Below are positions 5,286 through 36,058 of a stretch of 64,000 bases of DNA, one piece after another. The position numbers and the translations under genes were made by a program. How positions within the stretch are numbered: position 1 is the first letter of the stretch; each line of letters begins with the position of its first letter. A model generated the notes under the pieces. The model did no database searches. It was not told the DNA's origin and was given only the letters and a program-made list of their open reading frames with translations. The DNA is from an uncultured candidatus Porisulfidus sp. (GTDB taxonomy: Bacteria > Pseudomonadota > Gammaproteobacteria > Poriferisulfidales > Poriferisulfidaceae), in assembly GCA_965242985.1 (NCBI GenBank), contig OZ251520.1:1683227-1747226 (forward strand), read 5' to 3'.

Positions 5286-5523
5286 GCGGTTAATTTAGCA
5301 CGGCGGGCGTTTTTTCATTTAACGTTCCCGGTCAGCCTCTTGCGGACAACCTCGCTCCCGCGTCCGCGCCGCCGGGAACCGAGTTGCGAATGGAGCGAAC
5401 TTGCGGCCCGGCATTGCCGCCCGCCGCAGCGGCCGGGCATAGCAGACGGCAAACGCCGCGCCCGCGCCGCCGGTTCCTCTCTCCTCCGTCCCGCAACTGC
5501 CATGCCGACCGCTTCCGCCCGCC

Positions 5524-6126
5524 TTGCCGCCCTTATCGCGCATCCTCGCCAAGGCGAACCGGGGCTGGTACAGCGTCAAGACCTACAGCAACGGCCGCGA
5601 CCTGCGCGTGACGGCCAGCGGCTGGGCAGGCGAGCGCACTTGGTGGGGCGGCACGCTCAAGCGCATGTACATCCGGCACCGGGGCGAAAGCCGCAAGCGC
5701 CGCGACGGTCCGCGCCTGGACGCGAACATGCAGACCGCCCACATCGCCACCCCGGCGCTGACGCTGGGCGCCCGCGGCGGCTGGCGCCGCTACCGGACCG
5801 ACGCGGCGGTCGAGCGCTACGACTCCTGGTGGGGCGGCCTCAGCGCCGACTACGAGCTGCCGCCGGTGCTCGGCGTCCAGGGCTTCGGCGCCAGCCTGTC
5901 CTACGACCGGCACCACCGCTATTCGGACCACGTGAAGATCACGGAGAGCCGCTCCAAGCGGCGCGACCGCCTGGGCATCGTCCGCCTGGCGCTGCACAAC
6001 CGCAACATCGAGTTCGGCGACTTCATGCCGGAGACCACCCTCGTCCACGAAGAGCGAAAATCAAACGTCGAGCTGTACCGCTACAAGCGCAGCCGCATCG
6101 AGCTGGGGCTACGCCGCCTGTTCTGA
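5524..6126 (+). pseudogene. C-terminal fragment (~200 aa) of a Slam/DUF560 paralog, N-terminus missing
   Basis: Aligns residue-by-residue with the last ~200 aa of the Slam at 36232..37686 (YDSWWGG...SYDRHHRYSD...GLRRLF); no N-terminal TPR/signal peptide. Confidence 0.6.
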
Positions 6127-6170
6127 CCGGCCGGCATGCCGCGGCGAAGCCGCGGAATGCCGGCCGCCGC
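6127..6170 (+). terminator. 16-bp-stem hairpin (GGCCGGCATGCCGCGG...CCGCGGAATGCCGGCC) immediately after Slam-fragment stop
   Basis: Near-perfect inverted repeat with 4-nt loop seen directly in sequence; no clear U-tract. Confidence 0.35.
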
Positions 6171-7972: not shown

Positions 7973-10900
7973 AAGACTTTCTCGCCCCGCGCACCTACAC
8001 CAAGGTATCCGCCAAGGAACCGCAATCCTATGCGCCCGAAGACCTGCGCGGCCACGACGCCTACGTGCTGCTCGGCGGCCCGGGCTCGGGCAAAACGAAG
8101 ATGTTCGAGTATGAGGCCGAACAGGAGGGCTGCCGTTACGTAACTGCGCGCGACTTCATCGTGCTGGCTCTTTCCAAATGGCGCAATACCACGCTGTTCA
8201 TCGACGGGCTGGACGAGGCGCGTGCCGGGTCGAGGGACGGACGAAAACCAATCGATAAAATCCGCGCCAAACTGGAGAAGTTGAACCGGCCCCGATTCCG
8301 CCTTTCCTGCCGCACAGTAGACTGGTACGGCGAAAACGACAGCCGTGATCTGAAACCCGTGTCTCCGAACGGCAACGTAGAAGTTTTCCAGCTTGACCCG
8401 CTCTCGGATGACGCGGCCCACGAGTGCCTGAAGCACCATCCCAGCATCGAGAATGCCGAAGAATTCCAGCGACGCGCCTGCGAGCAGGGAATGCACTTTC
8501 TGCTGACCAATCCGCAGAGTCTGCAGATGCTGGCAGACTTGGTCGCAAACGGCACTTGGCCTGAAACGCGGATGCAACTATTCGACATCACCATCCGAAA
8601 ATTGTTGCAAGAACACAACCATGAACACATCCGCGTGGCCCCCCCTATCTCTCTGGGCGACTTGATGGACGCGGCTGGAAAACTATGCGCCGTGCAGTTG
8701 CTGAGCGGCATCGTCGGTTACGCCCGCACGGGCAACAGCCGCTCCGGCTGCCCCAGTCTAGATGAAGTTCCAGAAAACAATCCCGCTTTCCTCAACCGCG
8801 CTTTAGGCACCCGCCTATTCAAGGAAGAGAAAGGCGACTGCCTCATCCCCATACACGTGCAGATGGCGGAATTCTCTGCAGCGAAATATCTAGCAAAGAG
8901 AATTAAGGAAAATTTGCCCGCTAGACGGATACTCGCCTTGATGACAAGCGGAAACGGAGCTATCGCGCCGGAACTTCGCGGCCTGTCTGCTTGGCTCGCC
9001 ACGCACAGCAAAAGCAACCGGAGAGAGCTTATCGCACGCAATCCTATCGGAACAGTGCTGTATGGCGATGTCCGCAACTTCTCCTGCGATGAGAAATCCC
9101 AAATACTGGACTGCTTGAAACTAGTTGCTAAAGAACAACCCTGGCCGAAAATCCTAGACTCCATCGATCCCAAACTAGGAGACTTGGCCACAGATGATAT
9201 GGAGGAGAAATTCCGAGAGTACCTGGAGAATCTGGACCCGGAAGATATTGCTGAGAGGTCATTCGCCTTGATTCTTCTGGAGGCCATAAAAAACAGTCCG
9301 ATACATTGGCGGTTCGCTACTTCTATGCTGAAGATCGTCAAAAATAACCAGTGGCCTTCCGCTATAAGGGAGCGCACGCTTGATGAATACATACGTTGCG
9401 CCAAAAATAACGACGCAACAACTTCGGATCTTTTGCCTTTGCTTCAGGATATGGAAAAGGATCCAAACTTAGATCCCACGGACTCGCTCACGGCCCGGTT
9501 GCTTGAAGCACTCTACCCATACCCGGGCGCGCTGTCCGCCAAGGAGATCCTGCGATATCTGCGCCGACCTAGAATGCGGACTCTTATCGGAAGATATAAG
9601 GTCTTTTGGGGTGAACGCATCGACCAAGAAAATCCCAGCCAACTGGCTGAACTTCTAGACGCTTTCGTGGCACAGTACGACCGCCTCTGCAGTGAAGCGC
9701 TAGCTGATTCTCCGCCCAACTTTTTTCTAATCGAGATACCCCACAAGCTGCTGAGCCGCTTTCTTCTCACAGCGCCACCGAAAACGATCAAACTGAAGCG
9801 CCTATTCTCTTGGCTAAGAGCCGCCGCGTGGCCCGGAAAGCCTGGACACGAGCCGGGGGGCCAGGACGCAACACAAATTGTTGCATGGCTTGAACGACGC
9901 CCTGAAGACTACAAAGCTCTCATCAAAATGGGCTGGGAGCACTGCGTGGCGCAATCGGGATGCGCCAGCACCGAAGAATTCATGGAGTGCCTATTCCTGT
10001 TGGAACGGTGCTTTTGCCGCGCGATGTTGCCAAAAGACTTCGGCCGCTGGTGCCTTGACCAAGCCGTTGCTATCGACAACCAGATTATCCGGGAATATTT
10101 GGGCCGACAAATTGCCAATTTTGTACACTGGAAACAACACGATGAAGATCTTTCTGTGGAAATCGTGCAGGAATGCGCTTCTGGACACTTTGAACTTCTC
10201 AGGAGTTTTCAGGAACGGCTTTCCGAGCTTAAGGAAAACGATCGGTTATCCGAGGAAGAAGGCTGGCGAATTAAGGATATCCGCAAAAAAGATGCTACGC
10301 TAGCAAGAAAGCGGAGACTAAAGCGGTATGCGGAAATCAAGCAACATGAAACCGCTCTGAAAGAAAACTGTTGCTCGCCCGGAATACTCGACTTTCTGGC
10401 GCGAGCATATTACGGGGAATTTGGCAACATCCGCGGCCCAAACCCCAGATCTCGATTGCGCCTCCTCCTGAACGATGATGCGGAACTAGTAAACGCTGCG
10501 CTATGCGGGTTGCATGGAGCAATGGAGCGAAGTGACCTGCCTGTGGCAGATGAGATTATCAGGCTTACCGCGCAACACAGGATCCATCTGCTGGCAAAAC
10601 CATTTTTAATCAGTTTCGGCGAGGCTATGCGGCAACAGCCCGAAACCGTTGTGTCCGTGGAGGAAAAGCATCTTCGCTTAGCGCTCGCCATCCACTACAC
10701 AGCCCCCATTCGCTGGATAGACAACAAACCGCCAGAATGGCACGGAAAATTATTGGAAACTCATCCGCAGGTCGTCGCCGAAATGCTGGTGAAGTCCGTC
10801 AGATCGGAGCTGCGCAGCAAGCGTGATTGCCGCTCCATCCTCGACCACTGGTTTTCATCCTCAAATCACGCTGAAATCGCTCGAAGATCAGCTCTGCCTC

Positions 10901-23656: not shown

Positions 23657-25012
23657 TCAGGCGGTCCCCCTTGGAAGAGACACCGAGGGGGCGGCACGGG
23701 CGGTAATCATAACCGAATCCCCGCCGGAGCGGCGCGGCGGGGCGGCACCGCCCGGCGGGCGGATTTCTCCCGAAGCTGGCGGGGCTTCGGCCCGCGGATC
23801 TTCAATAGCACCGCTGTAGCGGGCGAAATCCCCGTATTCGGGGATTTTTTTCGGGGCCAGGCTGAAAGCGCCAGAGTCGTCCCGGGCGCAGGCGTAGACA
23901 GCCGGCAGGTTGAGGCCGTTGAAATAGTGCGCCCGCACGAACGAATAGGCGCCGGCGTCCGCGAACACGACGCGCGCGCCGGCCGCCAGGGGCCGGTCGA
24001 AGCGGTAGGTCCCGAACAGGTCGCCGGCGAGGCACGTCGCGCCCGCAAGGATGTATTCGTGCCGGCCGGCCGGAGCCGCGCCGAGAACGGAAGGCGTGAA
24101 ATCCTCGTACTCGAACACGTCCTGCCAGTGGCTGGTGGCGGTGTCCAGCACGGCGACCTGCTTGTCGCCGCTCGCGAACACGTCCACGACCGTGCTGGCC
24201 AGATAGCAGGCGTCGGACAGGAACGCGCTGCCGGGCTCCATGAAGACCTCCAGCCGGAACCGGTCCCGGAAGAGCGCCACGGCGGCTTCGAAATCCGCCG
24301 GCTCGTCCTCCGGCAGGAACAGATAGCCGCCGCCGATGTTGATCCACCGCGCGCGGGCCAGCCGGCCCGGGATGCGCGCCGCCAGGAGTTCGGCGGTTTC
24401 CCGCAGGCCGGAGAACTCCCTGGCCTCGCAGTTGGTGTGGAAGTGCACGCCGGAAAGAGCCTCGTCCCAAGCGGGCGGCGCATCGTCGTGCGCTTCCAGC
24501 ACGCTGAGGGGGATCCCCAGCTTCGAGTTTTTCCGGCACGGGTCGTAGCGCTCATCTCCGGCCAGCGACAGCTCGGGGTTGACCCTCAGCCCGCAATGCA
24601 GATTTTCCCCGGCGCGGGCGGCGAATTGCTCCCGCTGGCTCAGGGAATTGAAAGAGATATAGTCGCAAGCGCCCTTGATCACGTCGAATTCTTCCGGCCG
24701 GATGCCCGGGCTGGTGAAGTGGATGCTGTGCCTCGCGGTGGCGACTTGCTGGATCAACTGCGCCTCGAACGCCGAACTGGCGGCGAAGCCGTCGATGGCC
24801 GGCGCGAGCGTCTCCAGCACGCCCGCGAAGGAGTTCGCTTTCATGGGATACAGGAGTTTCGCCCCCGCATCCGCCGCCAGGCGCGACAAATATCCGGCGC
24901 GACTCCGCAGCGCGTCCGTGTCGTAGATGAGCGCGGGCGTGGAGAGGTCCGCTTCAAGGAGTGTTTCCTCAAGCGATTCGACGGCAGGTTGCGTGTCGAC
25001 TTGCATGATCAT
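23657..25012 (-). CDS. nspC: Carboxynorspermidine/carboxyspermidine decarboxylase (PLP fold-III decarboxylase)
   Basis: LLYPMKAN, GGGYLF PLP/fold-III motifs; C-terminal extension longer than typical. Confidence 0.65.
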   Translation of the reverse strand: MIMQVDTQPAVESLEETLLEADLSTPALIYDTDALRSRAGYLSRLAADAGAKLLYPMKANSFAGVLETLAPAIDGFAASSAFEAQLIQQVATARHSIHFTSPGIRPEEFDVIKGACDYISFNSLSQREQFAARAGENLHCGLRVNPELSLAGDERYDPCRKNSKLGIPLSVLEAHDDAPPAWDEALSGVHFHTNCEAREFSGLRETAELLAARIPGRLARARWINIGGGYLFLPEDEPADFEAAVALFRDRFRLEVFMEPGSAFLSDACYLASTVVDVFASGDKQVAVLDTATSHWQDVFEYEDFTPSVLGAAPAGRHEYILAGATCLAGDLFGTYRFDRPLAAGARVVFADAGAYSFVRAHYFNGLNLPAVYACARDDSGAFSLAPKKIPEYGDFARYSGAIEDPRAEAPPASGEIRPPGGAAPPRRSGGDSVMITARAAPSVSLPRGTA

Positions 25013-26313
25013 GTTCTGGAGATGGCGTGGACGCGGTCCATGGTTCGTTCAAACGCATATCCGGAAAGGAATGCCAAAAGAACGAATCGGTGGTGTGATC
25101 CCTTGGGGGTCAGATCACAATTCTGAAAGAGATAGCAGCTGGCGAAACTCGACTCCACCAACATATAGGTTAGGAAACCCGCCACTAGCCCTAAGCCGGC
25201 GGCTCGCCACGTGCGTTGGACTTCGCGCGAACCTTGTTGATTTCCAACTTCCAGCTTATCAGCCTGTCCCAGCGCACGCAGAACCGAGACTAGCGCTCCC
25301 GCCACACCGAGAATCGCCCAGTGCAGCGCGAAAAAAGGCCACTCACCGGCATAACTCGGCACTGTGCCCGCAGCCAGCAATAGAGGAATGGCCACGAAAC
25401 ACGCATATCTCAGCATGTTAACCATGGCCGAGCCTTCCACCCACAACTTTTCGTTTTCGGTTACCGTGGGGAGCAGCCTTTCCGTAACAACCGCGCGCAA
25501 TTCACGGAGAACGCTCGTGCAATGCCGCTTTACTGCCTGATGCCTTCCTTCACGCGGTTCGACTTGTTCGCGCTCAGGTGAATCACTGCCCGCGCCAAGT
25601 TGTTCCTTAAGAGATTCGATTTGATGCCGGATGTCCCAGTAGTCCTCCTTGGTTTGGGTATGCGCTTCTTCATCCGCATAGTCTTCAAGTTCACCTAGGT
25701 GCACGTCCGCTAGATACTTAACCCTTTCTTCCGACGCGCAATTGGCAAGCAGTATCTTCAAATACAGAAGGTCGTACTCCACCACGCTCTCGTTCTCCTG
25801 CAGCTTGTTCTCCAATTTTTTTACTGCAGCGCACAATCCGGCCGTCAGAACCTTATTCCGACGCCGTTTGCACTCACTAGTCGACTCGGCGCTCTCCATT
25901 TCCGCCAAGGCCTGTTTCCCGCTCTCCAACAACAACCTGACATAATGCCGATCCTGAATGCGGGGCAGAAATTTCGCTTTCTCGAAAGTGCCCCAGAAGT
26001 GCATAAGCACCGTCAGCAAGAAAACAGCATAAATGAAGTACAAGTATTTGGCCGGCGAGAGACCGCTATCATTCACCCACGAGCAAAACGCGCTCCAGCG
26101 CAAGGCATCGAAGAGGAACACGAGACATACGCACACCAATGTTACGATGATAGACAGCGAAAGAGCGTACAACACCCAGCGCAATCCCGTATGGATGCTC
26201 CGCTGAACCCACCCAGCGTCAGACTGCTCCCACGGTTGCCGGCAGTACGCGCACACCCGACGGCTCCATTTGCCCCGCTGCTTGGCATTTCCCTCAGTTT
26301 CCGCCATCTCCAT
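25009..26313 (-). CDS. Membrane protein with N-terminal and C-terminal TM segments flanking a long coiled-coil; lower GC
   Basis: Hydrophobic helices and heptad-rich central region; stop overlaps nspC start. Confidence 0.4.
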   Translation of the reverse strand: MEMAETEGNAKQRGKWSRRVCAYCRQPWEQSDAGWVQRSIHTGLRWVLYALSLSIIVTLVCVCLVFLFDALRWSAFCSWVNDSGLSPAKYLYFIYAVFLLTVLMHFWGTFEKAKFLPRIQDRHYVRLLLESGKQALAEMESAESTSECKRRRNKVLTAGLCAAVKKLENKLQENESVVEYDLLYLKILLANCASEERVKYLADVHLGELEDYADEEAHTQTKEDYWDIRHQIESLKEQLGAGSDSPEREQVEPREGRHQAVKRHCTSVLRELRAVVTERLLPTVTENEKLWVEGSAMVNMLRYACFVAIPLLLAAGTVPSYAGEWPFFALHWAILGVAGALVSVLRALGQADKLEVGNQQGSREVQRTWRAAGLGLVAGFLTYMLVESSFASCYLFQNCDLTPKGSHHRFVLLAFLSGYAFERTMDRVHAISRT

Positions 26314-27468: not shown

Positions 27469-28065
27469 ATGACCGAGAAGCCGCCATCTGAGCTGTTCCG
27501 CGCCATCAGCGCGGACAGCGCGAAAGAGCTTAGGAAAATCTTCACAAATCACAATGGTGGCCGGCTGTGGTTTCATGCGCCGGGGCATTACCAAGACATC
27601 GAGGATCCGCGGAGGCGAGACGAATCTGAGGGCTGCGGCTCCTACCGCCTGAATGGCGTGACGGTTGAAGATGTCAGCGTATCACCGGCATACATTCTCT
27701 GCTTCAGCGCCGACGAAGCCGCGGCGAGTGCCTGCTTTGCGGAACCCAGAACCCCCAAGATGATCATCCGGCTTGCTAATCCGGAAGAATTGCGAATACT
27801 CATTCTGAAAGAAGTTCTACCGGATTGCAACGTGATCAACGTTGAGTGGCGCGAAGTAATCTACGACAAAACCGAGGATGTTCCCGAAGACTTGAATCCG
27901 GCAGACGACTGGGCGCGGAAATTTTGGCACAAGCCGAAAAAATTCGCCGCGCAAAAGGAATGGCGACTCATCATCTTTTTCCAGCACAGCATGCCCATCA
28001 CCAACGACAGGTTAGAACTGAACTTAGGCTATTGCGGCGACCTATTTCGCCTGCACGCAACCTAA
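27469..28065 (+). CDS. Hypothetical protein (198 aa), convergent with E1 gene
   Basis: Intact ORF in low-GC islet; no recognisable motif. Confidence 0.3.
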   Translation: MTEKPPSELFRAISADSAKELRKIFTNHNGGRLWFHAPGHYQDIEDPRRRDESEGCGSYRLNGVTVEDVSVSPAYILCFSADEAAASACFAEPRTPKMIIRLANPEELRILILKEVLPDCNVINVEWREVIYDKTEDVPEDLNPADDWARKFWHKPKKFAAQKEWRLIIFFQHSMPITNDRLELNLGYCGDLFRLHAT

Positions 28066-28079
28066 GCGGTCCCTGATGC

Positions 28080-29468
28080 TCATGGCCTATCCCCTAACTG
28101 GCTAGATGCCGCACTGGCATAGCCGAGATTAGTTTTTCGGAAGTCTTTCTGAGATAGTTCCGATGATCGGTGCTCGATCGCCAACAGATCTAGGTCTATA
28201 AACTCTCGTGTCCGCCCATCATGCCGGACAACAAGCAATTCGGATAGCACCAAACACGCCGCCACCACCCCCACAAAGGGTGCCCCAACCGCCTTGCCCG
28301 CAAGTTGCGCAATTCCGCAATCATCAAGCGTCCCATTTTCAACCAAGCGCCGATATGCCGGGCGGTCAGTGTCCCCCCCGCCGGCTTCAGTTGTTTTCCA
28401 AATTTCCCGAGCGGGACGCGTTCCGGGAAGAACATGCAGCCGCATGCTCTGGAAATCGCGAGGACCCCGTCCCAACCCCGCCTCAACCACCATGTCGAAG
28501 CCGACTTGGTCGAGTGCTCTGCGGGCTATAGCGTTGTCCACCCCGCATAGGGCAACACCTGGTTCGTCGTCCCGCCGCCGCCAGCCGCTGGCGAACTGCC
28601 GCTCGCATATCCTCGTTCGGAAGCCGCGCCGCTCCGCCCAAGCAGCCATAGCGCGGGTTTTCTTCCTTCCCACCATCCCGGCATCACTCAAGACCGAGGT
28701 GCTCTCCGTAGACCCGGTGATATCGTCAGTATCCTGCAGCATCAGGAACAGTTTGGCTGAGTCGGCATAGGGCAACAACCCGAGGCCCCACAGATAGGCT
28801 TGCCCGAGATGACCTAGGCCAATCAGCCACAGGCGGTCGGGCAGCCAAGCCAACTCCGGCTCGCCACCCTCTTTCAGCCAATCAACCTCTTTTGACGGGT
28901 TCCAAAGCGACAATCCAACCGGACGCTTTCCGGCAGGCGGACACTCGCCACGGACATATAGAAACGCCTCATTGATGGCGAGCCCTGCTGCCAGCATCGC
29001 CGCGAGGATCATCGGTGGGCCCGATTCCGCTTGTACTTCCGAATGCGCCGGCACAATCCCGCCGCGCCAGCCTTCCGCAACAGTCCGAATACGGAAGCCC
29101 GGCCGCCTCTCGCGGGGGCCGCCACTGATGAAGATGCAGGGAGTATCCGGGTCGGCGGAGCCGATTGCTCCGCCGAGCTCTGCAATGGCCTCGCCAAGGG
29201 TGTGACCCAGAGGCAGCGGCACAGCCTTTTTTACATCAGCGGGACATTCGACGGACACTCCGCCCAAGAATGACCGATGTCCGAGGGCGACAGCCGTTAG
29301 CAGAGCCGCTTGATTTTGCGGGTCATGAGTGTCTTTCGGGTCGATGCAGACTGCGAGACGGTACTGCTGGAAACTTTCTTCGGCCTGCTCGACACTTTCG
29401 GCAGAACCATCATCAAGCGCGAGCTTCATCAGACGATGCAGATCTTCAGGAAGCGAATCTTGTTCCAT
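28080..29468 (-). CDS. ThiF/E1-like protein (LWLIGLGHLGQAY Rossmann; ALCGVDN active-site region)
   Basis: E1 motifs; last gene of the Ubl-E2-JAB-E1 operon. Confidence 0.6.
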   Translation of the reverse strand: MEQDSLPEDLHRLMKLALDDGSAESVEQAEESFQQYRLAVCIDPKDTHDPQNQAALLTAVALGHRSFLGGVSVECPADVKKAVPLPLGHTLGEAIAELGGAIGSADPDTPCIFISGGPRERRPGFRIRTVAEGWRGGIVPAHSEVQAESGPPMILAAMLAAGLAINEAFLYVRGECPPAGKRPVGLSLWNPSKEVDWLKEGGEPELAWLPDRLWLIGLGHLGQAYLWGLGLLPYADSAKLFLMLQDTDDITGSTESTSVLSDAGMVGRKKTRAMAAWAERRGFRTRICERQFASGWRRRDDEPGVALCGVDNAIARRALDQVGFDMVVEAGLGRGPRDFQSMRLHVLPGTRPAREIWKTTEAGGGDTDRPAYRRLVENGTLDDCGIAQLAGKAVGAPFVGVVAACLVLSELLVVRHDGRTREFIDLDLLAIEHRSSELSQKDFRKTNLGYASAASSQLGDRP

Positions 29469-29477
29469 GTGAGACTC

Positions 29478-29996
29478 CTAAAGGCCGATGTGGAGAAATG
29501 ATTTTCTCTGGGACGGCGAAATGGCCCGCCAGCGCTTTCCGCCCAAGTAACGGTAAATGCCGATTTCATGCCGGGGAATTCGCCCCGCAGCGAAATTCGG
29601 CAAGATAAGCGAGCAGTGCCCTTTGCGGGCGATCATCGGGTGGTCTCGGTCCGATTGACTCTGCTGCGCTCCGCCGGGATGGACGTGAATGTCTGCAACA
29701 ACGGTCAGATTGCGGTTCCGGCAAATGGCCCAGAGCTTGCTGAAATTGCCGCCGCTGAAGCGGATGATTCCGCTACTGAGGCAGTGACGGTCCAAGTCGT
29801 CATACAGGACGAAGTCGGCGATGCGGGCGCGGACGCCGTGCTGGCGGCCGAGCAAGAACGCCCCGCTTTCCTGGGACTGGTTGCACCCGCGCTTCCGCAA
29901 ACCCTGCAACAATCGGCGCCACAGAATCCAAGAGCAGGAAAGCTCATGCTTCGGCGCAAACATGCGTCGCATGGCATCAGTCATTGAGAAGTTCAT
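29478..29996 (-). CDS. JAB/MPN (JAMM) metallopeptidase, probable deubiquitinase-like
   Basis: HVHPGGAQQSQSD JAMM-like motif; start MNFSMTDAM chosen from in-frame ATGs. Confidence 0.55.
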   Translation of the reverse strand: MNFSMTDAMRRMFAPKHELSCSWILWRRLLQGLRKRGCNQSQESGAFLLGRQHGVRARIADFVLYDDLDRHCLSSGIIRFSGGNFSKLWAICRNRNLTVVADIHVHPGGAQQSQSDRDHPMIARKGHCSLILPNFAAGRIPRHEIGIYRYLGGKRWRAISPSQRKSFLHIGL

Positions 29997-30444
29997 GAAT
30001 GAATTCCAAGTACTGAGTGATTCCATCCTTCGGACGCCAGATTTTGGATGGCATTTGCGTGCACCAACCAGGGTGGCCTTGAACGCATACCCGATCGTAG
30101 GGCATGTACAGGGCCAAACCATCACCCCAATCTTTCCGGAATACCTCCGAAGCGCGCCCTCCTTGGGGCCATTGGTCAAATTCGAGGACAGCATCTTGCT
30201 CCAAGTCCCACGGGCCACCCGTAGGCGGATCTTGGGGGTAGTTGGAGCAATCCAAACGCAGAACATATTCGCTCCGGCTTCCCGCCGCGACAGCAACCAG
30301 AACTATAGGCCACTCGATGCGAACCAAGTGCCAGTGCCCCTCTACAACACCAAGGCGAAAAGCGGCTTTGGCAACGTCGGCTTCAAAAGCCCTCTTATCC
30401 GGAGCATCCATGCCTACGGCTCCCTCAGCCCTGAATTCTCTCAT
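29977..30444 (-). CDS. E2/UBC-like (6E-family-like) protein
   Basis: ~150-aa protein between Ubl and JAB genes, with overlapping starts/stops; DCSNYPQDPP region resembles E2 active-site neighbourhood. Confidence 0.45.
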   Translation of the reverse strand: MREFRAEGAVGMDAPDKRAFEADVAKAAFRLGVVEGHWHLVRIEWPIVLVAVAAGSRSEYVLRLDCSNYPQDPPTGGPWDLEQDAVLEFDQWPQGGRASEVFRKDWGDGLALYMPYDRVCVQGHPGWCTQMPSKIWRPKDGITQYLEFIHELLND

Positions 30445-30916
30445 CGGGCACCAAATCGAACTCCACCACGCAATCCGGGCACTTGGCGAATGCGCCGACA
30501 TGCCGGTTCGCCGATGGCCGGTTGTCCGTGTTCACAAGCTGAAGCTTGAAGTCACTGGCGTCAGCTTTGGAGATTCCGAACTCGCTTTCCGCTGCCCACC
30601 GGCGCACCACGTCAATGGTGATGCCTGGGGCGAACTCCTTTTCCGCGGTCTGTCCGCTGTAGTGCACGCGAGCCTTGACCTCGTGACACCGGCTCAGGTG
30701 CAGTTTGAGGCCAATCGACGTGACAAATTCAGATACCAGCGCATCTTCATCCGCAGGTTCATCTCCGTCTTCGAAAAACAGGCGGAATTCTGGTGTCAGG
30801 CCGTGCTGCTTGGACAAGATTTCCTTAACAACTCCGAGAGTAATGCCGGCATCAACCTCAATGTGCTCGATGTTGTCAACGCTCTCGCACTGGTAAAAGA
30901 CTTCAATTTCTTTCAT
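30425..30916 (-). CDS. Multiubiquitin-family tandem beta-grasp ubiquitin-like protein (163 aa)
   Basis: Two beta-grasp-like halves (KEIEVFYQ...GITLGVVKEIL; KARVHY...GITIDVVRRW); start MKEIEVF with upstream GGAG. Confidence 0.6.
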   Translation of the reverse strand: MKEIEVFYQCESVDNIEHIEVDAGITLGVVKEILSKQHGLTPEFRLFFEDGDEPADEDALVSEFVTSIGLKLHLSRCHEVKARVHYSGQTAEKEFAPGITIDVVRRWAAESEFGISKADASDFKLQLVNTDNRPSANRHVGAFAKCPDCVVEFDLVPDERIQG

Positions 30917-31019: not shown

Positions 31020-34000
31020 TCAAGGAAGACGCAGAGATCCAGCAGGAAGCACTCCGCAAATGAAGAAGTGCGGGCAACGAGGACAGACCACGTCGTCGGG
31101 GTTGGGCGGAAACACCCCACTAGCCACATGGGTAGCCAAGGCTTGTAGTGTGTTACGGCGATTGTCTAATTTCTTGTCGGTCAATGACACATCTTCGGAA
31201 GTTTCATCTGTCAAATGCAAAGCCTGCACTTTCGCCGTATCACCGAATTTGGCCTTGGCTGCCATCAGGTACAGCGCGTATTCCAAGCGATCGTACTCAG
31301 TTAACCGCTTTTTCCCGGTCCGCACGTGCCGGAGGACTCCCGCACCATCAGGCAGTTCGAAAACCTCGCTCGGCTCCACCCAGACCTGCACGCCCAATAA
31401 ATCGATTTCTATCGGGTTGGATGGCAAAAATCGCAAGTCCTCTCCGCTCCTCACAGCAGTCTTGATAAGCTGTGAAGCAATATCTCGGTACTCCGCCGCA
31501 TACGCGTGGTCAGTCGGTCCGCGCCGCTGCCAGATTTCCTCGAATTTTTTCTCGGCTGCATCCAAAAGCGGATTGGCTCGGCAACGCTCTCTCTTCAACC
31601 AGTGCAGAAATTCATGCACGCAATCGTGGGTCTGCGTGAACGCCGTCGTCTTCCGGGCTCGCTCTAGGCCAAGAACGTGCGTATAGAAAAAACGCCGGGG
31701 GCATTTTTCATAGTCGATCAAGTGTTTGCCCGTCAGATCCCAGCCGTCAGAAAACGTCACATCGACCGATGTCAAGGATTGATCGTCTGGAAGCAACAAA
31801 ATTTCAGGGCCATCCACGCGGTCGGCATAGCTTGGAAGCAGCCACCTGATGAAAGACGATTCTGAGTACTTTCTCCCACCTAGTCGCATTTGTGCAAGAT
31901 ACAGATGCAGGCGCACTCTGGCGCGCGACAGCGCCACAAAGAACAGGCACTGCTCTTCATGCCGGTGAGATTCTTGAGCGAAATCAGGCTGTTGCTCCGC
32001 CCCCTCAATCATCCCGGCAGGCGGCGGACAGCGCGAACCTCTGTAGCTTCCGGGCAGGCTGCCCTTCGTCAAACCCGGAATATGCACGGCCTGAAACTCG
32101 AGCCCTTTGCTAGCATGGATTGTCATTACGCGCGCTGCGTCCATGTGCAGAGCCACCGCGGGAACCTGCCGCAGGTCTCGGTCCTCCCTCAACAGAACCA
32201 GCCGCCGGATTCGTTCCAGCATGTTCCGGATGGCCGAACCACTAGACACCGGCCCCGGCGAGCGGATGAAATTCAGGAATTGCCAAACCGCGACTGCGCG
32301 CAAACGGCCCGCAACCGAATGTTCCTCTGCCATCCGACGGACAAGATCGGTCCGATCCAGAAGATATTCCGACAGCATGTTCCACGGCGTGGAGTCACCG
32401 GAAACTCCAGCGAAATCCCGCGCCAACTGCTTGAAAGCCGTCGCGCTTTCTTTCGACAAGTCCGGAAGCGTCGACAGCTCCGGAAGAATATCGATCGCTG
32501 GCCGGCCATCTTGACGAATGTACTGGATTGCCGAATGCACATCCTGCAGAGGCACTCCGTATCGCGGCATCGCACAGATACGAATCAAGTCATCGCCGGG
32601 ACGGTCTACTAAGAAACTCATCAAAGCCAGCAGGTCGCGCACCTCGCTCCGTTCAAACAGGCTTCCTAAATGAAGCGCCGGGATGTCACGCTTCTCCAAC
32701 GCCTCTGCTATCTCAGACACCCGACGGTTTGATCTGCACAACACTACTTGGTCGCGCAAAGAGATGCCCTCCTGTTCCAATTTGCGAATGTTTGCCGCGA
32801 TTCCCGCCGCCTCCTCTTCCAATGTTCCGTACCAGAGGATTTCCGGTCTGTTCGCACCATCACCACACGCGGCATTCAGAACCAGCGGTTCCATACCCTC
32901 AGACGCATCCATCTTCGACGCGACAGCGACGAAACTATCGACGACCTCCCGAGTGGAGCGGTAGTTGACCTCCAAGCGGCTGACTTCAGCATCCGGATAA
33001 TCCTGTTCGGAGAACTTCGCCATGTTCGCCGAGGAGGCCCCCCGAAAGCGATAGATGGACTGCCGAGCATCCCCAACCACCCAGAGCCTCTTCCCAGCAC
33101 CAGCAACGGCTTTCAGCAGACGCGCACTGGCGCGATTCACATCCTGATATTCGTCCACCAAAACGTGCCGGTGCCGCGAACGCACTTCCTCACGTACCTC
33201 TAGGTTGTTTTCCAGCAATAACGCCGGACGCATGACGAGGTCGCCGAAATCCACAGCTCCCCGCTTATCCAACTCGCTCTCGTATCGAGTGTAGATGTCG
33301 GCGATTTCCGAGCACTTTCCCGCTCTCGCGCGAGCTTCTTCTTCTCCCGCATTGACCAGCATCTGCTCGGCTAGATCACGGTATCGGCCGGAGTCCACAA
33401 GCTCATCCTTAGCGCGGGAAATGGCCTCAAGGACATCGCTCAAAATCAGAACCGGGTCCCAGAGATTCCGATAATGCTTGAGCGGCAATGTCGGCAGGAT
33501 TTCCTCAAGCATCTCGACGGCATCGCCCTTGTCATACAGCGGCGGGTCGGCCGGAAGACCGACTCGATCGTGGTGTCGGCGCAACAGATCCAAGCCGAAC
33601 GAATGGAATGTGCCCGTCCAAATGCGCGATGCGACATCCAAATCGTTCACAGCCAACCGCTCAGTCAGCTCCCCCACCGCACGGTTCGAGAAGGTCAAGA
33701 TCAGGATCGAGGCCGGGTTGACACCTTCATCCAAAAGCGACAGGACCCGCCCTATCAGCGTCTTTGTCTTCCCCGTCCCAGGACCCGCCTGGAGCAGGAA
33801 TGGGGAGCCCCGGTGGGCAACCGCACACTTCTGGGATAAGTCAAGCCGGATCTCGGTTGATTTCGGTGCGGGCGCAAGGTCGGGCGCATCAGGGAGAAGC
33901 AACGAGTCGAAAAGCTGCTGGCGGACAAGATTGATCGGCAGTCCAGTCAATCCTGCAATCTGCAAGGAAGTCTTTTGGTCAGCAACATGCAGGCGGAGGG

Positions 34001-34439
34001 CAACTGATCTCGGTAACAGCAACTCCCGAGCGAAAATATTGGCCTGCAGCTCTCGGCGTTCGCGGGCGCCATAACTCTGCACTCGCTGTTTCCCAACCCA
34101 GGACCTTTCCTCCGGCTGCGACAAATCGCTGAAATCCTCGCTACCGCGTACTGGCGAGGAGGCATGGAGCCGGGCATGGCCGACTTCGTGCGCTATCAAT
34201 TGAGCCTGCTCTACCGGACTCTCCGTGTTTTTGCAGAGTATCGTGCCGCCCTGTTGGTCGAAAAGCGCACGCGCCCCTTTCAGCATGGGGTCGCCCGGCT
34301 CCAAGCGAATGCAATCTAGTCCGAAGTGACGAGCGCCTGCCTCAGCGACCGCTAGAGGATCATACGCATTGACGCCCGCCTTAGCGAGCTCCTTATAGAG
34401 CTCTGCGGCGAACTGGCGACCGTCCTCGAACTTGTCCAA
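31020..34439 (-). CDS. 1139-aa fusion: N-terminal ImmA/IrrE-type M78 metallopeptidase (HEVGH), UvrD/Rep-family SF1 helicase (GPGTGKT, VDEYQD, TIHASKGLEF), C-terminal Cas4/AddB-like PD-(D/E)xK nuclease with Cys cluster (CPRCPHFFIC)
   Basis: All motifs seen in translation; stop of upstream gene overlaps start. Confidence 0.65.
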   Translation of the reverse strand: MDKFEDGRQFAAELYKELAKAGVNAYDPLAVAEAGARHFGLDCIRLEPGDPMLKGARALFDQQGGTILCKNTESPVEQAQLIAHEVGHARLHASSPVRGSEDFSDLSQPEERSWVGKQRVQSYGARERRELQANIFARELLLPRSVALRLHVADQKTSLQIAGLTGLPINLVRQQLFDSLLLPDAPDLAPAPKSTEIRLDLSQKCAVAHRGSPFLLQAGPGTGKTKTLIGRVLSLLDEGVNPASILILTFSNRAVGELTERLAVNDLDVASRIWTGTFHSFGLDLLRRHHDRVGLPADPPLYDKGDAVEMLEEILPTLPLKHYRNLWDPVLILSDVLEAISRAKDELVDSGRYRDLAEQMLVNAGEEEARARAGKCSEIADIYTRYESELDKRGAVDFGDLVMRPALLLENNLEVREEVRSRHRHVLVDEYQDVNRASARLLKAVAGAGKRLWVVGDARQSIYRFRGASSANMAKFSEQDYPDAEVSRLEVNYRSTREVVDSFVAVASKMDASEGMEPLVLNAACGDGANRPEILWYGTLEEEAAGIAANIRKLEQEGISLRDQVVLCRSNRRVSEIAEALEKRDIPALHLGSLFERSEVRDLLALMSFLVDRPGDDLIRICAMPRYGVPLQDVHSAIQYIRQDGRPAIDILPELSTLPDLSKESATAFKQLARDFAGVSGDSTPWNMLSEYLLDRTDLVRRMAEEHSVAGRLRAVAVWQFLNFIRSPGPVSSGSAIRNMLERIRRLVLLREDRDLRQVPAVALHMDAARVMTIHASKGLEFQAVHIPGLTKGSLPGSYRGSRCPPPAGMIEGAEQQPDFAQESHRHEEQCLFFVALSRARVRLHLYLAQMRLGGRKYSESSFIRWLLPSYADRVDGPEILLLPDDQSLTSVDVTFSDGWDLTGKHLIDYEKCPRRFFYTHVLGLERARKTTAFTQTHDCVHEFLHWLKRERCRANPLLDAAEKKFEEIWQRRGPTDHAYAAEYRDIASQLIKTAVRSGEDLRFLPSNPIEIDLLGVQVWVEPSEVFELPDGAGVLRHVRTGKKRLTEYDRLEYALYLMAAKAKFGDTAKVQALHLTDETSEDVSLTDKKLDNRRNTLQALATHVASGVFPPNPDDVVCPRCPHFFICGVLPAGSLRLP

Positions 34440-34442
34440 TCG

Positions 34443-35105
34443 TCAGTAACTCATAAGGCGCTTCTGCTGTTCTTCCGAAAGTCCAGAAGCGCGAACAGCC
34501 TGCTCGAAAGTCTGCTGGCTGGCAGTCTCAGGCTGTTTGTCCGACTTATAGAATCTCACACCGGCGGGAGCAACTTCAGGCGACGATGAAAGGTGAGCAA
34601 CGACAACATCTTTCGCGACACCCAGTACTTCAGCGACTGTACAGATGAATTTTTCCGGGATCGTGGATAGAACAATGACTCGGTCACGGAATCTCATCAG
34701 AAACACATTATTGATATTGAGCTGCTCGGCCAAAGCTTTGAAATCAGCTGGGCTGAGCACTGCAAACGGATTGGGCACGTTTGTCCGCTCCGGAGAATCT
34801 TCGCTTTCGCTCGATGATCCGCGCGCCATCTGCACAGCGGATAACTTGCTGTGGAAACGGCTGACAGCACGGGACACCTCGGGAGAATTAATCGCCGCAG
34901 TCACCTCCTTGCCGAGTTTTCCCGGATCTTTCAGCCCGCCGCCGAGCGTATCCAACACCAAAGCCGCGGCCAGATCGGTAAGTTCTTCCGAATACTGCGG
35001 ATATCGGCGAACGAACTCGTTCAGCAACTTGGCGTCAGGCACACTCTGCTTGATCGAAAACGCGTGCAACACGTCTTCCAAAGTGGCATCACTGGAAATG
35101 GTCAT
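34443..35105 (-). CDS. Hypothetical 220-aa protein, middle gene of the 3-gene operon
   Basis: Intact ORF, 4-nt overlaps on both sides. Confidence 0.4.
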   Translation of the reverse strand: MTISSDATLEDVLHAFSIKQSVPDAKLLNEFVRRYPQYSEELTDLAAALVLDTLGGGLKDPGKLGKEVTAAINSPEVSRAVSRFHSKLSAVQMARGSSSESEDSPERTNVPNPFAVLSPADFKALAEQLNINNVFLMRFRDRVIVLSTIPEKFICTVAEVLGVAKDVVVAHLSSSPEVAPAGVRFYKSDKQPETASQQTFEQAVRASGLSEEQQKRLMSY

Positions 35106-36058
35106 GAGATGGACTCCTTGAATTTTTGCAGTTTGCCCGCAACTTTGGCAAGGCGATTGCGGACAGTCCGGCCACTACAGTTGCAGAGCGTGGCTATCGT
35201 CTCTTCGGCAGGATCTCGGGATTCCGCTTTATAGCCCAAGTAGCACAGGCCAACGACTTTCTGCTCATCCAGTGGCAGAGACTCAATCGCTCTGAAAAGT
35301 TCATCCCGGAAAGCGACATCCTCCGGAGTTTCACGGGACTGCAGGACTTCTGGTATCCAAGCCATGGCTTCTTCATGGCCTTCTGCGTCGGATTCGGCAA
35401 CAGCCTCCGGCAGGGGCACGGCATTTCGCGAGTGCTTTTGTTCCTTCCTGATGACATCAAGATAAAAGCAATGGAATGCGGCATTGAAACGGACTTCATA
35501 AAAATCCAATCGCCTGGGATTTCCCCCGCTTTTATCCTCCGCTAACATTTCGCCGAACCGGCCAAGGATTTCCTCGCGAACCCCCTCCGCATCCGGAATC
35601 ATTTTATCGGAGATGCGCGTCATGAGAATAGCTCGGCAACGTGCGAGAAGCGCATGCAAAGGAGCGTGCAACCAATCATCGTTCTTTGAGCGGAGTGCCT
35701 CCCGCACCAAATAGACTAAGCATTCGGAACTGATGTATCCGGATTTCCCCGGCTTCGTGAGGTTCAGCCGCTCTTGCAGAACTTCGGCACTGAGTTTAGA
35801 TACCGCGTCGATTTCAGCTTCGACTTTCCCCGGACGAACGTAAGGCTTGCCGTTCCTATCGCATTTCGTTAGCTTTCTGGCCATGTCTATGTTCCTCTGC
35901 TCAAAAGCATGCAATTTGAATTCCTGAATTTTGTTGTGGTAACCAGCGCATGTCCCCCATGCCCGCTTGATCATGGAGGCTGTCTGCGAAAAAATCAAGG
36001 GAATGGAAAGGTCCGCCTCACCTACTAATCGGGTTCTAGGAACTAAAACGGAAACCAC
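35102..36058 (-). CDS. Sigma-70 region-4-like / HTH regulator (ECF-sigma-like C-terminus)
   Basis: C-terminal LPLDEQKVVGLCYLGYKAES..IATLCNCSGRTVRNRL resembles sigma region 4.2; true start uncertain. Confidence 0.4.
   Translation of the reverse strand: MVSVLVPRTRLVGEADLSIPLIFSQTASMIKRAWGTCAGYHNKIQEFKLHAFEQRNIDMARKLTKCDRNGKPYVRPGKVEAEIDAVSKLSAEVLQERLNLTKPGKSGYISSECLVYLVREALRSKNDDWLHAPLHALLARCRAILMTRISDKMIPDAEGVREEILGRFGEMLAEDKSGGNPRRLDFYEVRFNAAFHCFYLDVIRKEQKHSRNAVPLPEAVAESDAEGHEEAMAWIPEVLQSRETPEDVAFRDELFRAIESLPLDEQKVVGLCYLGYKAESRDPAEETIATLCNCSGRTVRNRLAKVAGKLQKFKESIS

Follow-up and report, generated by a model that had tools for sequence, protein, structure and literature searches.

How bacterial relatives of eukaryotic ubiquitination, the Bil and Bub operons, are switched on is only partly known, and a locus that may bear on this lies in a 64,000-nucleotide stretch from an uncultured candidatus Porisulfidus sp. 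(GCA_965242985.1, contig OZ251520.1, positions 1,683,227–1,747,226 of the forward strand; hereafter the window). Three open reading frames (ORFs) in the ORF list of the window, 35102–36058, 34443–35105 and 31020–34439, lie head to tail on the minus strand and encode, in this order, a sigma-like protein (318 residues when read from an upstream GTG), a protein of 220 residues, and a fusion protein of 1139 residues (TTG start) that joins a peptidase, a helicase motor and an iron-sulfur (Fe-S) nuclease-like domain. A BilABCD operon follows directly downstream on the same strand (PADLOC, E 1e-46 to 1e-165), with genes for the ubiquitin-like protein (Ubl) BilA, the E2 BilB, the JAB deubiquitinase BilC and the E1 BilD in that order. 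What do these three genes do beside a ubiquitin-like operon? The analyses described here indicate that the trio is probably a DNA-sensing protease/sigma switch for Bil/Bub transcription, placed in the slot used elsewhere by CapW, CapH+CapP and CapK+CapS.

In the CapH+CapP pair, an XRE repressor is combined with a single-stranded DNA (ssDNA)-activated M78 peptidase, and the pair de-represses CBASS, Bil, Bub and other defence operons. An XRE protein with an adjacent M78/COG2856 peptidase is an established repressor-cleaving pair (10.1101/2022.04.27.489752; PMC10904395). CapW, CapH+CapP and CapK+CapS are described as DNA-damage-responsive regulators of Bil/Bub encoded just upstream of the operons; the Corbett laboratory found CapH+CapP with Type II Bil operons in 15% of cases and with Bub operons in 31%, CapW with 8% of Bub operons and CapK+CapS with a further set of them, and these papers mention no helicase (PMC10557695; 10.1101/2024.11.21.623953; PMC11601603; PMC13373217). 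Neither a description of the present module nor a link of Bil, Bub or CapP to a helicase/UvrD fusion was found in the searchable literature, outside which subscription-only papers mostly lie. In PADLOC the two small proteins are unmatched, and the helicase matches generic UvrD-core models alone (GajB, DRT helicase; residues ~200–630). This agrees with the initial annotation of the locus, which did not recognise the architecture from described defence systems. The trio is apparently a conserved and undescribed control module of Bil/Bub, in which the M78/XRE regulatory theme is already known and the sensor and the dedicated sigma factor are new.

A three-gene unit fixed upstream of ubiquitin-like operons

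A scan of one genome per GTDB species yielded 80 loci, 63 of which encode full-length members of the fusion family. Both small genes are present upstream in the same order at 57 of the 62 loci with sufficient upstream DNA; among the five scored as lacking them, at least three (L010, L049, L070) carry two unclustered ORFs of similar size in that place. A Ubl operon follows on the same strand in 52 of the 57 loci with sufficient downstream DNA (at least 91%), and it is of three types: BilABCD at 17 loci, Type I Bub at 18 (multiubiquitin, optional Prok-E2_E, JAB-ThiF fusion, DUF6527) and Type II Bub at 17 (multiubiquitin, DUF6791-ThiF fusion, DUF6527). One more locus, L071, has a divergent ThiF-containing cluster downstream, which would make the count 53 of 57. 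The helicase and Ubl genes are spaced by ~100 nt across loci. Annotated plasmids from Rhizobium, Klebsiella, Leptolyngbya and Acinetobacter display the same six-gene layout under uninformative gene names. The neighbourhood is thus conserved and the proposed three-gene unit is real, its ORFs being present and co-directional on the minus strand; the suggestion that it is a system of its own did not survive, as the trio is the fixed upstream part of a unit of six to seven genes.

The helicase turns up in 96 plasmid records, among them plasmids of Klebsiella and clinical plasmids of Acinetobacter, and its distribution over Proteobacteria, Cyanobacteria, Acidobacteria, Chloroflexi and Latescibacterota is patchy; the trio sits on islands and plasmids, not in core genomes. 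The 2.9 million viral contigs of IMG/VR yielded generic UvrD cores but not a single full-length member. In the window, the trio and the bil operon lie in a low-GC islet at 25–36 kb (GC 0.52–0.59 versus 0.67–0.77 in the flanks), in keeping with the islet next to a Ubl system that had been noted earlier.

Comparison with homologues refined the gene boundaries. According to the family alignment, translation of the sigma-like gene starts at the ATG at 35884 (gene at 35102–35884, minus strand), which yields a protein of 260 residues; the GTG at 36058 chosen by the ORF finder is an over-extension. The junction between the sigma-like and 220-residue genes is a 4-nt ATGA overlap, as first described, whereas the junction between the 220-residue and helicase genes, also described as an overlap, is a 3-nt spacer (TGA cga TTG). 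Homologues of the large protein align from residue 1, with M1, R8 and A11 conserved, behind the TTG start. Because of this alignment, the public gene model of the helicase (P0001, 1088 residues), which starts 51 codons downstream of the TTG, is judged 51 codons too short, and the N-terminal helices of the M78 domain are therefore truncated in it. A 1764-residue protein (P0007) considered as an informative fusion was rejected, being a full copy with a partial tandem copy.

Operons with and without the trio can be set beside the published regulators. In the Bub catalogue, the Type II rows for Novosphingobium rosa, Leptolyngbya boryana and Rhizobium etli have no regulator (no CapP/CapH entry). 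Of these species, matched to the catalogue by name, the first two were found to carry trio-linked operons, whereas for R. etli the match is that of the helicase, on a plasmid; the catalogue rows and the operons found here are presumably the same. In three Type II Bub operons without the trio, the position just upstream of the Ubl gene is taken by different genes on the opposite strand, namely a WYL-domain protein (CapW-like) in Acidithiobacillus, a 415-residue XRE-family protein, possibly a CapH-CapP fusion, in Methylomonas, and small DNA-binding/ATP-binding genes in Ralstonia.

The fusion protein joins a CapP/IrrE-type peptidase to a DNA motor

In the 1139-residue protein, Pfam detects Peptidase_M78 (PF06114) at residues 56–176 (42 bits; cut-off 22), UvrD-helicase at 202–478 (214 bits), UvrD_C, also above its curated cut-off, and PDDEXK_1 at 907–1128 (44.6 bits; cut-off 22). 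The AlphaFold2 model is confident, with a predicted local distance difference test score (pLDDT) of 83.6 and a predicted template modelling score of 0.83. The HExxH motif (H84, E85, H88), the Walker A motif (G219–T225), the DEYQD box (429–433) and four cysteines are invariant in 66 homologues. The fusion of M78, UvrD and PD-(D/E)xK-fold domains read from the sequence at the outset is therefore real and strongly conserved.

Residues 1–185 (33885–34439, minus strand) form a CapP/IrrE-type M78 zinc peptidase with a linker. Among the solved structures of the PDB, those nearest to a profile of the N-terminal 195 residues are CapP (7t5t, E=4.7e-5) and IrrE (E=0.028), and in the AlphaFold2 model the peptidase is followed by a three-helix unit resembling a helix-turn-helix (HTH; residues 144–181), as in CapP and IrrE. 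H84, E85, H88, R128 and E130, the last as the Glu ligand downstream of HExxH, are invariant across diverse members and, because these catalytic residues are retained, the domain is not incidental to the protein. No GAF domain was detected in the fusion by Pfam, the AlphaFold2 model or Foldseek, residues 197–1139 being made up of the UvrD motor and PDDEXK_1.

A long disordered loop (residues 94–124, ~34068–34160) comes right after the HExxH helix. Its position 98 is a cysteine in at least 90% of 66 close homologues and an arginine in the protein of the window. An internal 'cysteine switch' loop has been described for a third of CapP proteins, and the M78 loop with Cys98 recalls it.

Residues 197–860 (31860–33851, minus strand) constitute a complete superfamily 1A (SF1A) motor of the UvrD/PcrA type, as judged by Pfam, NCBIfam and Foldseek. 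Motifs I–VI are invariant (GPGTGKT, DEYQD, GDxRQxIYxFRGA, YRS, THxSKGLEF and VxxSRA). The NCBIfam pcrA model scores 300 bits on the motor, under its equivalog cut-off. Foldseek aligns the motor core with UvrD/PcrA/Rep at E ~1e-33, and the best matches of the whole chain beyond UvrD are AddA, AdnA/B and RecB.

The C-terminal domain (residues 900–1139; 31023–31742, minus strand) is an Fe-S nuclease-like domain of the AdnA/AddB/Cas4 type, identified by Pfam PDDEXK_1 and by a profile of the C-terminal 285 residues that matches the nuclease domain of mycobacterial AdnA at E=4e-11. The four cysteines C913, C1119, C1122 and C1128 (C...CxxCx5C) are invariant in both a 45-member and the 66-member set. 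In the profile alignment the catalytic D-L-K of AdnA faces R-V-R in the fusion family; over the 45 diverse members, position 1038 is R, K, Q or H and never D or E, and position 1040 is R in 30, K in 6 and Q in 5. With the (D/E)xK motif absent and the Fe-S cysteines kept, a role as DNA-degrading effector is unlikely; the R-x-R at motif III is evidence against an effector nuclease and compatible with a sensor that binds DNA. Judged from these residues, the domain is probably an Fe-S nuclease-like DNA-binding module and no nuclease. The Cas4-like nuclease of the initial annotation is thus upheld in its fold and Fe-S signature and not in its catalytic motif. No partner subunit is encoded alongside: the genes next to the fusion are those of the sigma-like protein, the HTH protein and the Ubl operon.

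The 220-residue protein carries an XRE-type helix-turn-helix

As a single sequence, the 220-residue protein (34443–35105, minus strand) has no match in the family libraries Pfam, NCBIfam, PHROGs and PADLOC. A word-indexed search with the protein alone retrieved 6 homologues, and an alignment seeded from the genome loci gathered 44. The family comprises about 960 clusters at 50% identity (E<=1e-10), all members being ~200–230 residues long. The structure model, of moderate overall confidence, contains a conserved N-terminal helical unit (residues 9–54), a four-helix domain (119–173, pLDDT ~90), a disordered but conserved YK(A/S)DxKP segment (178–194) in which P192 is invariant, and two terminal helices. 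The HTH of the four-helix domain superposes on CapH, DdrO and ImmR. These three are the substrates of CapP, IrrE and ImmA, respectively. The protein, initially listed as an unknown, is on this model an XRE-type HTH protein. An XRE-type HTH protein beside a CapP/IrrE-type peptidase thus suggests a regulatory protease-substrate pair over a new effector.

A sigma-like protein and a private promoter-like motif

A profile built from 49 sequences of the first protein matches the extracytoplasmic function (ECF) sigma factors SigH/AlgU/RpoE in the PDB at E=3.5e-7, mainly from region 2.4 to sigma4, and gives weaker full-length matches (2q1z, 9isn; ~1e-3) spanning sigma2 to sigma4. The family profile thereby lends support to the sigma-like regulator that had been proposed at the outset. 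The PGAP label of an Acinetobacter homologue is likewise 'sigma-70 family RNA polymerase sigma factor'.

The locus also contains a bipartite, non-sigma70 motif, TT(T/A)CCGG-N16-18-CGATT, with three copies in the window, at 36054, 35312 and 31002, all on the minus strand. The first copy, P1 (36027–36054; TTTCCG-N17-CGATT), precedes the sigma gene by ~140 nt and falls on the edge of the low-GC islet. P2 (35285–35312) lies within the sigma coding sequence, ~200 nt upstream of the 220-residue gene, and P3 (30975–31002) lies 18 nt past the helicase stop codon, ~60 nt upstream of the bilA ATG. The helicase–bilA spacer and the DNA ahead of the sigma gene have CCCGATTAGT(G/A)GGT in common, with TTTCCG 17 nt before it, and the 14-mer of P1, CCCGATTAGTAGGT, is identical in 13 of 14 positions to the copy ahead of bilA. 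Scans of the region for sigma70 promoters and terminators remained at chance level, with no excess of sigma70-type promoters, and Rfam recognised no known RNA at 27–37 kb.

The motif recurs across the family in equivalent places. It is found upstream of the sigma gene in 11–12 related loci, and the helicase–Ubl spacers share a layout of an A-tract, TT(T/A)CCGG, 16–18 nt and CGAT(T/C). A strict regular expression finds it in this spacer at 37 of 63 loci, at a density of 2.4/kb versus 0.06/kb elsewhere (~40-fold), and it is visible by eye in most of the remaining spacers. The copy inside the sigma gene, which codes for (F/Y)R...AI, also recurs across loci; at its synonymous sites in 38 loci, CGG is used in 31/38 (background 20%), GCG in 33/35 (34%) and ATT in 28/32 (31%), a bias which indicates that selection acts on the DNA sequence as such. 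Loci with a divergent sigma clade (c29) have CCCGYYTTTT ... TCGCT instead, in the same two positions, ahead of sigma and ahead of the Ubl gene. The four trio plasmids from Rhizobium, Klebsiella, Leptolyngbya and Acinetobacter contain exactly two plus-strand copies each in the cluster, one within the sigma gene and one ~80 nt ahead of the Ubl ATG; two additional weak matches lie outside the cluster in the Rhizobium stretch. The motif was not found upstream of the Ubl gene in the three trio-less Type II Bub operons. Its placement, enrichment, codon bias, covariation with the sigma clade and occurrence together with the trio jointly form the pattern expected of a sigma factor with cognate promoters, and the sigma factor encoded here presumably reads this motif.

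On the Acinetobacter johnsonii plasmid pXBB1-8 (L164), an IS5-family element (5390–6136) separates the helicase and Ubl genes. The motif is still directly upstream of the Ubl gene, and the Ubl operon therefore keeps its own promoter.

When the 5' untranslated regions (5'UTRs) were folded one by one, a hairpin appeared in the transcript predicted from P3 (30917–30974, minus strand) and in the equivalent 5'UTRs of L001–L066. At many loci, above all those linked to Bub, an outer stem forms between the opening bases of the 5'UTR and the Shine-Dalgarno sequence, for example CCTTAG...CTAAGG, CCTTCG...CGAAGG or CCTTGTG...CACAAGG. The mean z is -2.0 over 35 loci, with the Shine-Dalgarno sequence paired in 21 of the 35; the 5'UTR of the window itself has z -0.34, which is not significant. 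The hairpin, which has no match in Rfam, could be a translational control or a DNA operator.

A proposed sigma/protease switch

These elements can be assembled into a working model. Gene 1 would encode a dedicated ECF-like sigma factor with cognate promoters at P3 for the Ubl operon, at P2 for genes 2 and 3 and, in the window, at P1 for the sigma gene itself. The XRE-type HTH protein of gene 2 would keep the system off, either by using its conserved N-terminal domain as an anti-sigma factor or by binding an operator as a repressor. The product of gene 3 would be a CapP/IrrE-type M78 peptidase whose GAF sensor has been swapped for a UvrD motor and an Fe-S nuclease-like domain. Engagement of aberrant DNA by the motor (phage DNA ends, ssDNA or damage are candidate signals) would activate the peptidase, which would then cleave the 220-residue HTH protein, likely near the disordered YK(A/S)DxKP segment; cleavage would free sigma-dependent transcription of Bil or Bub. 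Expressed in E. coli, the four Bil genes suffice for defence (10.1101/2023.09.04.556158), which makes the trio an accessory and not a core part.

Several observations weigh against this model. The sigma region-4 match of the single sequence is weak and under the Pfam cut-off, the NCBIfam sigma70-ECF model gives 28 bits on it, also below cut-off, and PHROGs and PADLOC yield no usable match, so that membership of the sigma family derives from the profile match, and one RefSeq record labels a homologue 'response regulator transcription factor'. The model of the 220-residue protein has an overall pLDDT of 70. Instead of a promoter, the motif might in principle be an operator. As a sensor, a complete ATP-dependent motor is costly, and the helicase may have functions beyond sensing. 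The genes capH and capP are usually divergent from their target operon (PMC10557695), whereas the trio is co-directional with the Ubl operon. Finally, a few members (L010, L068, L055) have no Ubl operon downstream.

The model has several consequences if it is true. The ssDNA-sensing GAF domain of CapP and IrrE would be replaceable by a DNA motor, an immune sensor would have been built from a disarmed end processor of the AdnA/AddB type, and the engagement of foreign or broken DNA would be converted directly into transcription of a ubiquitin-like defence operon. A dedicated sigma factor with a private promoter would also offer a reason why an operon may remain silent when cloned apart from the genes upstream of it. 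The module is common, with ~960 clusters of the marker protein, 96 plasmid records and several phyla. We tentatively put forward, at somewhat less than even odds, that it represents a fourth, previously unrecognised family of Bil/Bub regulators, in which a DNA translocase and a degenerate Fe-S domain are hard-wired to a protease that destroys an XRE-like brake and thereby frees a private sigma/promoter pair.

Alternative explanations

The large protein might instead belong to the Ubl pathway, as a conjugation target, as an E3-like adaptor to DNA-bound phage proteins or, through M78, as a Ubl-processing or deconjugating peptidase, with the sigma and HTH proteins being ordinary local regulators. 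The very tight linkage to three types of Ubl operon would fit such a role; the targets and function of Bub are reported as unknown, phage protection by Bub being not yet shown (PMC13373217), and Type II Bub operons mostly lack a JAB peptidase, which leaves room for another one (PMC11601603). Yet the M78 domain is also found beside Bil and Type I Bub, which are already equipped with a JAB peptidase, and M78/COG2856 with an adjacent XRE protein is established in repressor cleavage (10.1101/2022.04.27.489752; PMC10904395). Moreover, many Bil/Bub operons do without the trio and have CapW, CapH+CapP or CapK+CapS instead (PMC13373217), and Bil is functional in E. coli as four genes (10.1101/2023.09.04.556158). 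A place within the conjugation pathway is therefore regarded as unlikely.

Alternatively, the trio could be an autonomous anti-phage system whose helicase-nuclease attacks phage DNA, and whose association with Bil/Bub is mere co-localisation or synergy. UvrD-type helicases do occur in known defence systems, the PADLOC matches to GajB and DRT are strong on the motor core, the trio is found on islands and plasmids beside AbiE, AddAB-like and Tn7-like genes, and a few members, including L010, L068 and L055 (the last beside BREX-like genes), lack a Ubl operon. Against it, one of three Ubl operon types follows at a minimum of 91% of loci in fixed order and strand, the ~100-nt helicase–Ubl spacing holds a shared promoter-like motif, and the canonical catalytic residues of the nuclease are lost family-wide; the PADLOC matches cover the helicase core only, with the GajA or reverse transcriptase partner absent. 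The lack of full-length members in viral contigs is neutral in this respect. Independent antiviral action of the trio is accordingly considered quite improbable.

At L055, the longer family member (9866–13696; 1276 residues) has no recognisable sigma or HTH gene upstream, and a DNA-methylase-like gene and BrxL, the BREX Lon-like protease, stand downstream in place of the Ubl operon. The fusion protein may also work with systems other than Bil/Bub.

That the large protein serves housekeeping or mobile-element DNA repair as an end-processing helicase-nuclease of the AddA/AdnA type, its N-terminal domain being incidental, as its whole-chain structural matches to AddA, AdnA/B and RecB and the homology of its C-terminal domain to the AdnA nuclease might suggest, is very hard to sustain. 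It is largely refuted by the low-GC islet and plasmid setting outside core genomes, the patchy distribution across phyla and the conserved pairing with two small genes and a Ubl operon; the absence of a partner subunit, the replaced catalytic D and K and the invariant M78 residues also count against it. Fixed synteny with three Ubl types, a private promoter, missing catalytic residues, alternation with known regulators and the island/plasmid distribution together weaken all three alternatives to a sigma/protease switch.

Relation to known regulators and helicases

The trio shares with CapH/CapP, DdrO/IrrE and ImmR/ImmA an HExxH peptidase followed by an HTH-like linker and an adjacent XRE-type HTH gene, and with CapH/CapP also the slot immediately upstream of a Bil/Bub operon. 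Variants containing a sigma factor have a precedent as well, since CapH, CapP and a sigma70-family sigma factor were reported beside 24 CBASS systems by Lau et al. (10.1101/2022.04.27.489752). The differences are equally clear. CapP and IrrE end in a GAF sensor, whereas the fusion continues for ~950 residues with the UvrD motor and the Fe-S nuclease-like domain. Unlike in CapH-type proteins, a conserved helical domain occupies the N terminus of the 220-residue protein and the HTH follows in its C-terminal half, and the trio always comes with a dedicated ECF-like sigma factor and its own promoter motif.

Compared with AdnAB, AddAB and RecBCD, the fusion has the same succession of an SF1A UvrD-like motor and a RecB-family domain with a four-cysteine Fe-S signature. 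It differs in being a single polypeptide without a partner, in having R-x-R for D-x-K and an N-terminal peptidase, and in its island/plasmid location and linkage to Ubl operons.

The trio also resembles ECF sigma/anti-sigma modules controlled by regulated proteolysis (RseA/sigmaE, RsiV/sigmaV): a small sigma factor, apparently of the sigma2-sigma4 type, is co-transcribed with a partner, the putative cognate promoter ahead of the module suggests autoregulation, and a protease gene belongs to the operon. It differs from them in that the proposed anti-sigma factor would be cytoplasmic and XRE-like, without a recognisable anti-sigma domain, the protease is an M78 domain fused to a DNA motor, and the signal would come from DNA inside the cell, not from the envelope. 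Its -35/-10 motif also differs from the classical ECF GGAAC...CGTC.

Gabija GajB and the DRT-associated UvrD helicases have in common with the fusion only the UvrD-type motor core (~200–630). Neither GajA (an OLD-family nuclease) nor a reverse transcriptase is adjacent to the fusion, and its peptidase, its Fe-S domain and the two partner genes bear no relation to either system. Assignment to Gabija or DRT was therefore rejected.

Neighbouring genes and the wider window

Downstream of P3, bilA occupies 30425–30916 (PADLOC BilA, 1.9e-46; start read from sequence), bilB about 29977–30405 (BilB, 7.7e-56), bilC about 29478–29972 (BilC, 7.7e-66) and bilD 28080–29468 (BilD, 4.7e-165), all on the minus strand; the Pfam matches in the operon (28080–30916) are DUF7665 and Prok-JAB. 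The same islet contains, downstream of bilD, a 434-residue multi-pass membrane protein (25009–26313, minus strand) and a 198-residue protein (27469–28065, plus strand) with a weak PHROG match only; neither recurs among the related loci.

Other genes recur around the trio and its Bil/Bub clusters elsewhere. An SbcD/Mre11-like gene (~393 residues, recognised by eye) was seen nearby in 13 loci and an SMC/SbcC-like ATPase gene (~1147 residues) in 7; the two form a pair 2–5 kb downstream of the Ubl operon in L021, L025, L028, L047, L062, L069, L070 and L046, and may represent a further module, for defence or repair, that accompanies the trio and Bil/Bub. Upstream neighbours include a Peptidase_S8 protein (739 residues) with an AAA-type ATPase (394 residues) in L007–L009, L049, L059 and L067, and a DUF6088/AbiEii toxin pair in L012, L013, L026, L028, L061 and L081; these recurrent neighbours fit a defence-island setting.

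No tRNA gene was found in the whole window. Low-GC islets (0.46–0.60) at 6–12, 17–21, 25–36, 43–50, 52–54 and 59–64 kb alternate with a host background of ~0.67–0.80, and this mosaic suggests either several independent acquisitions or one fragmented island.

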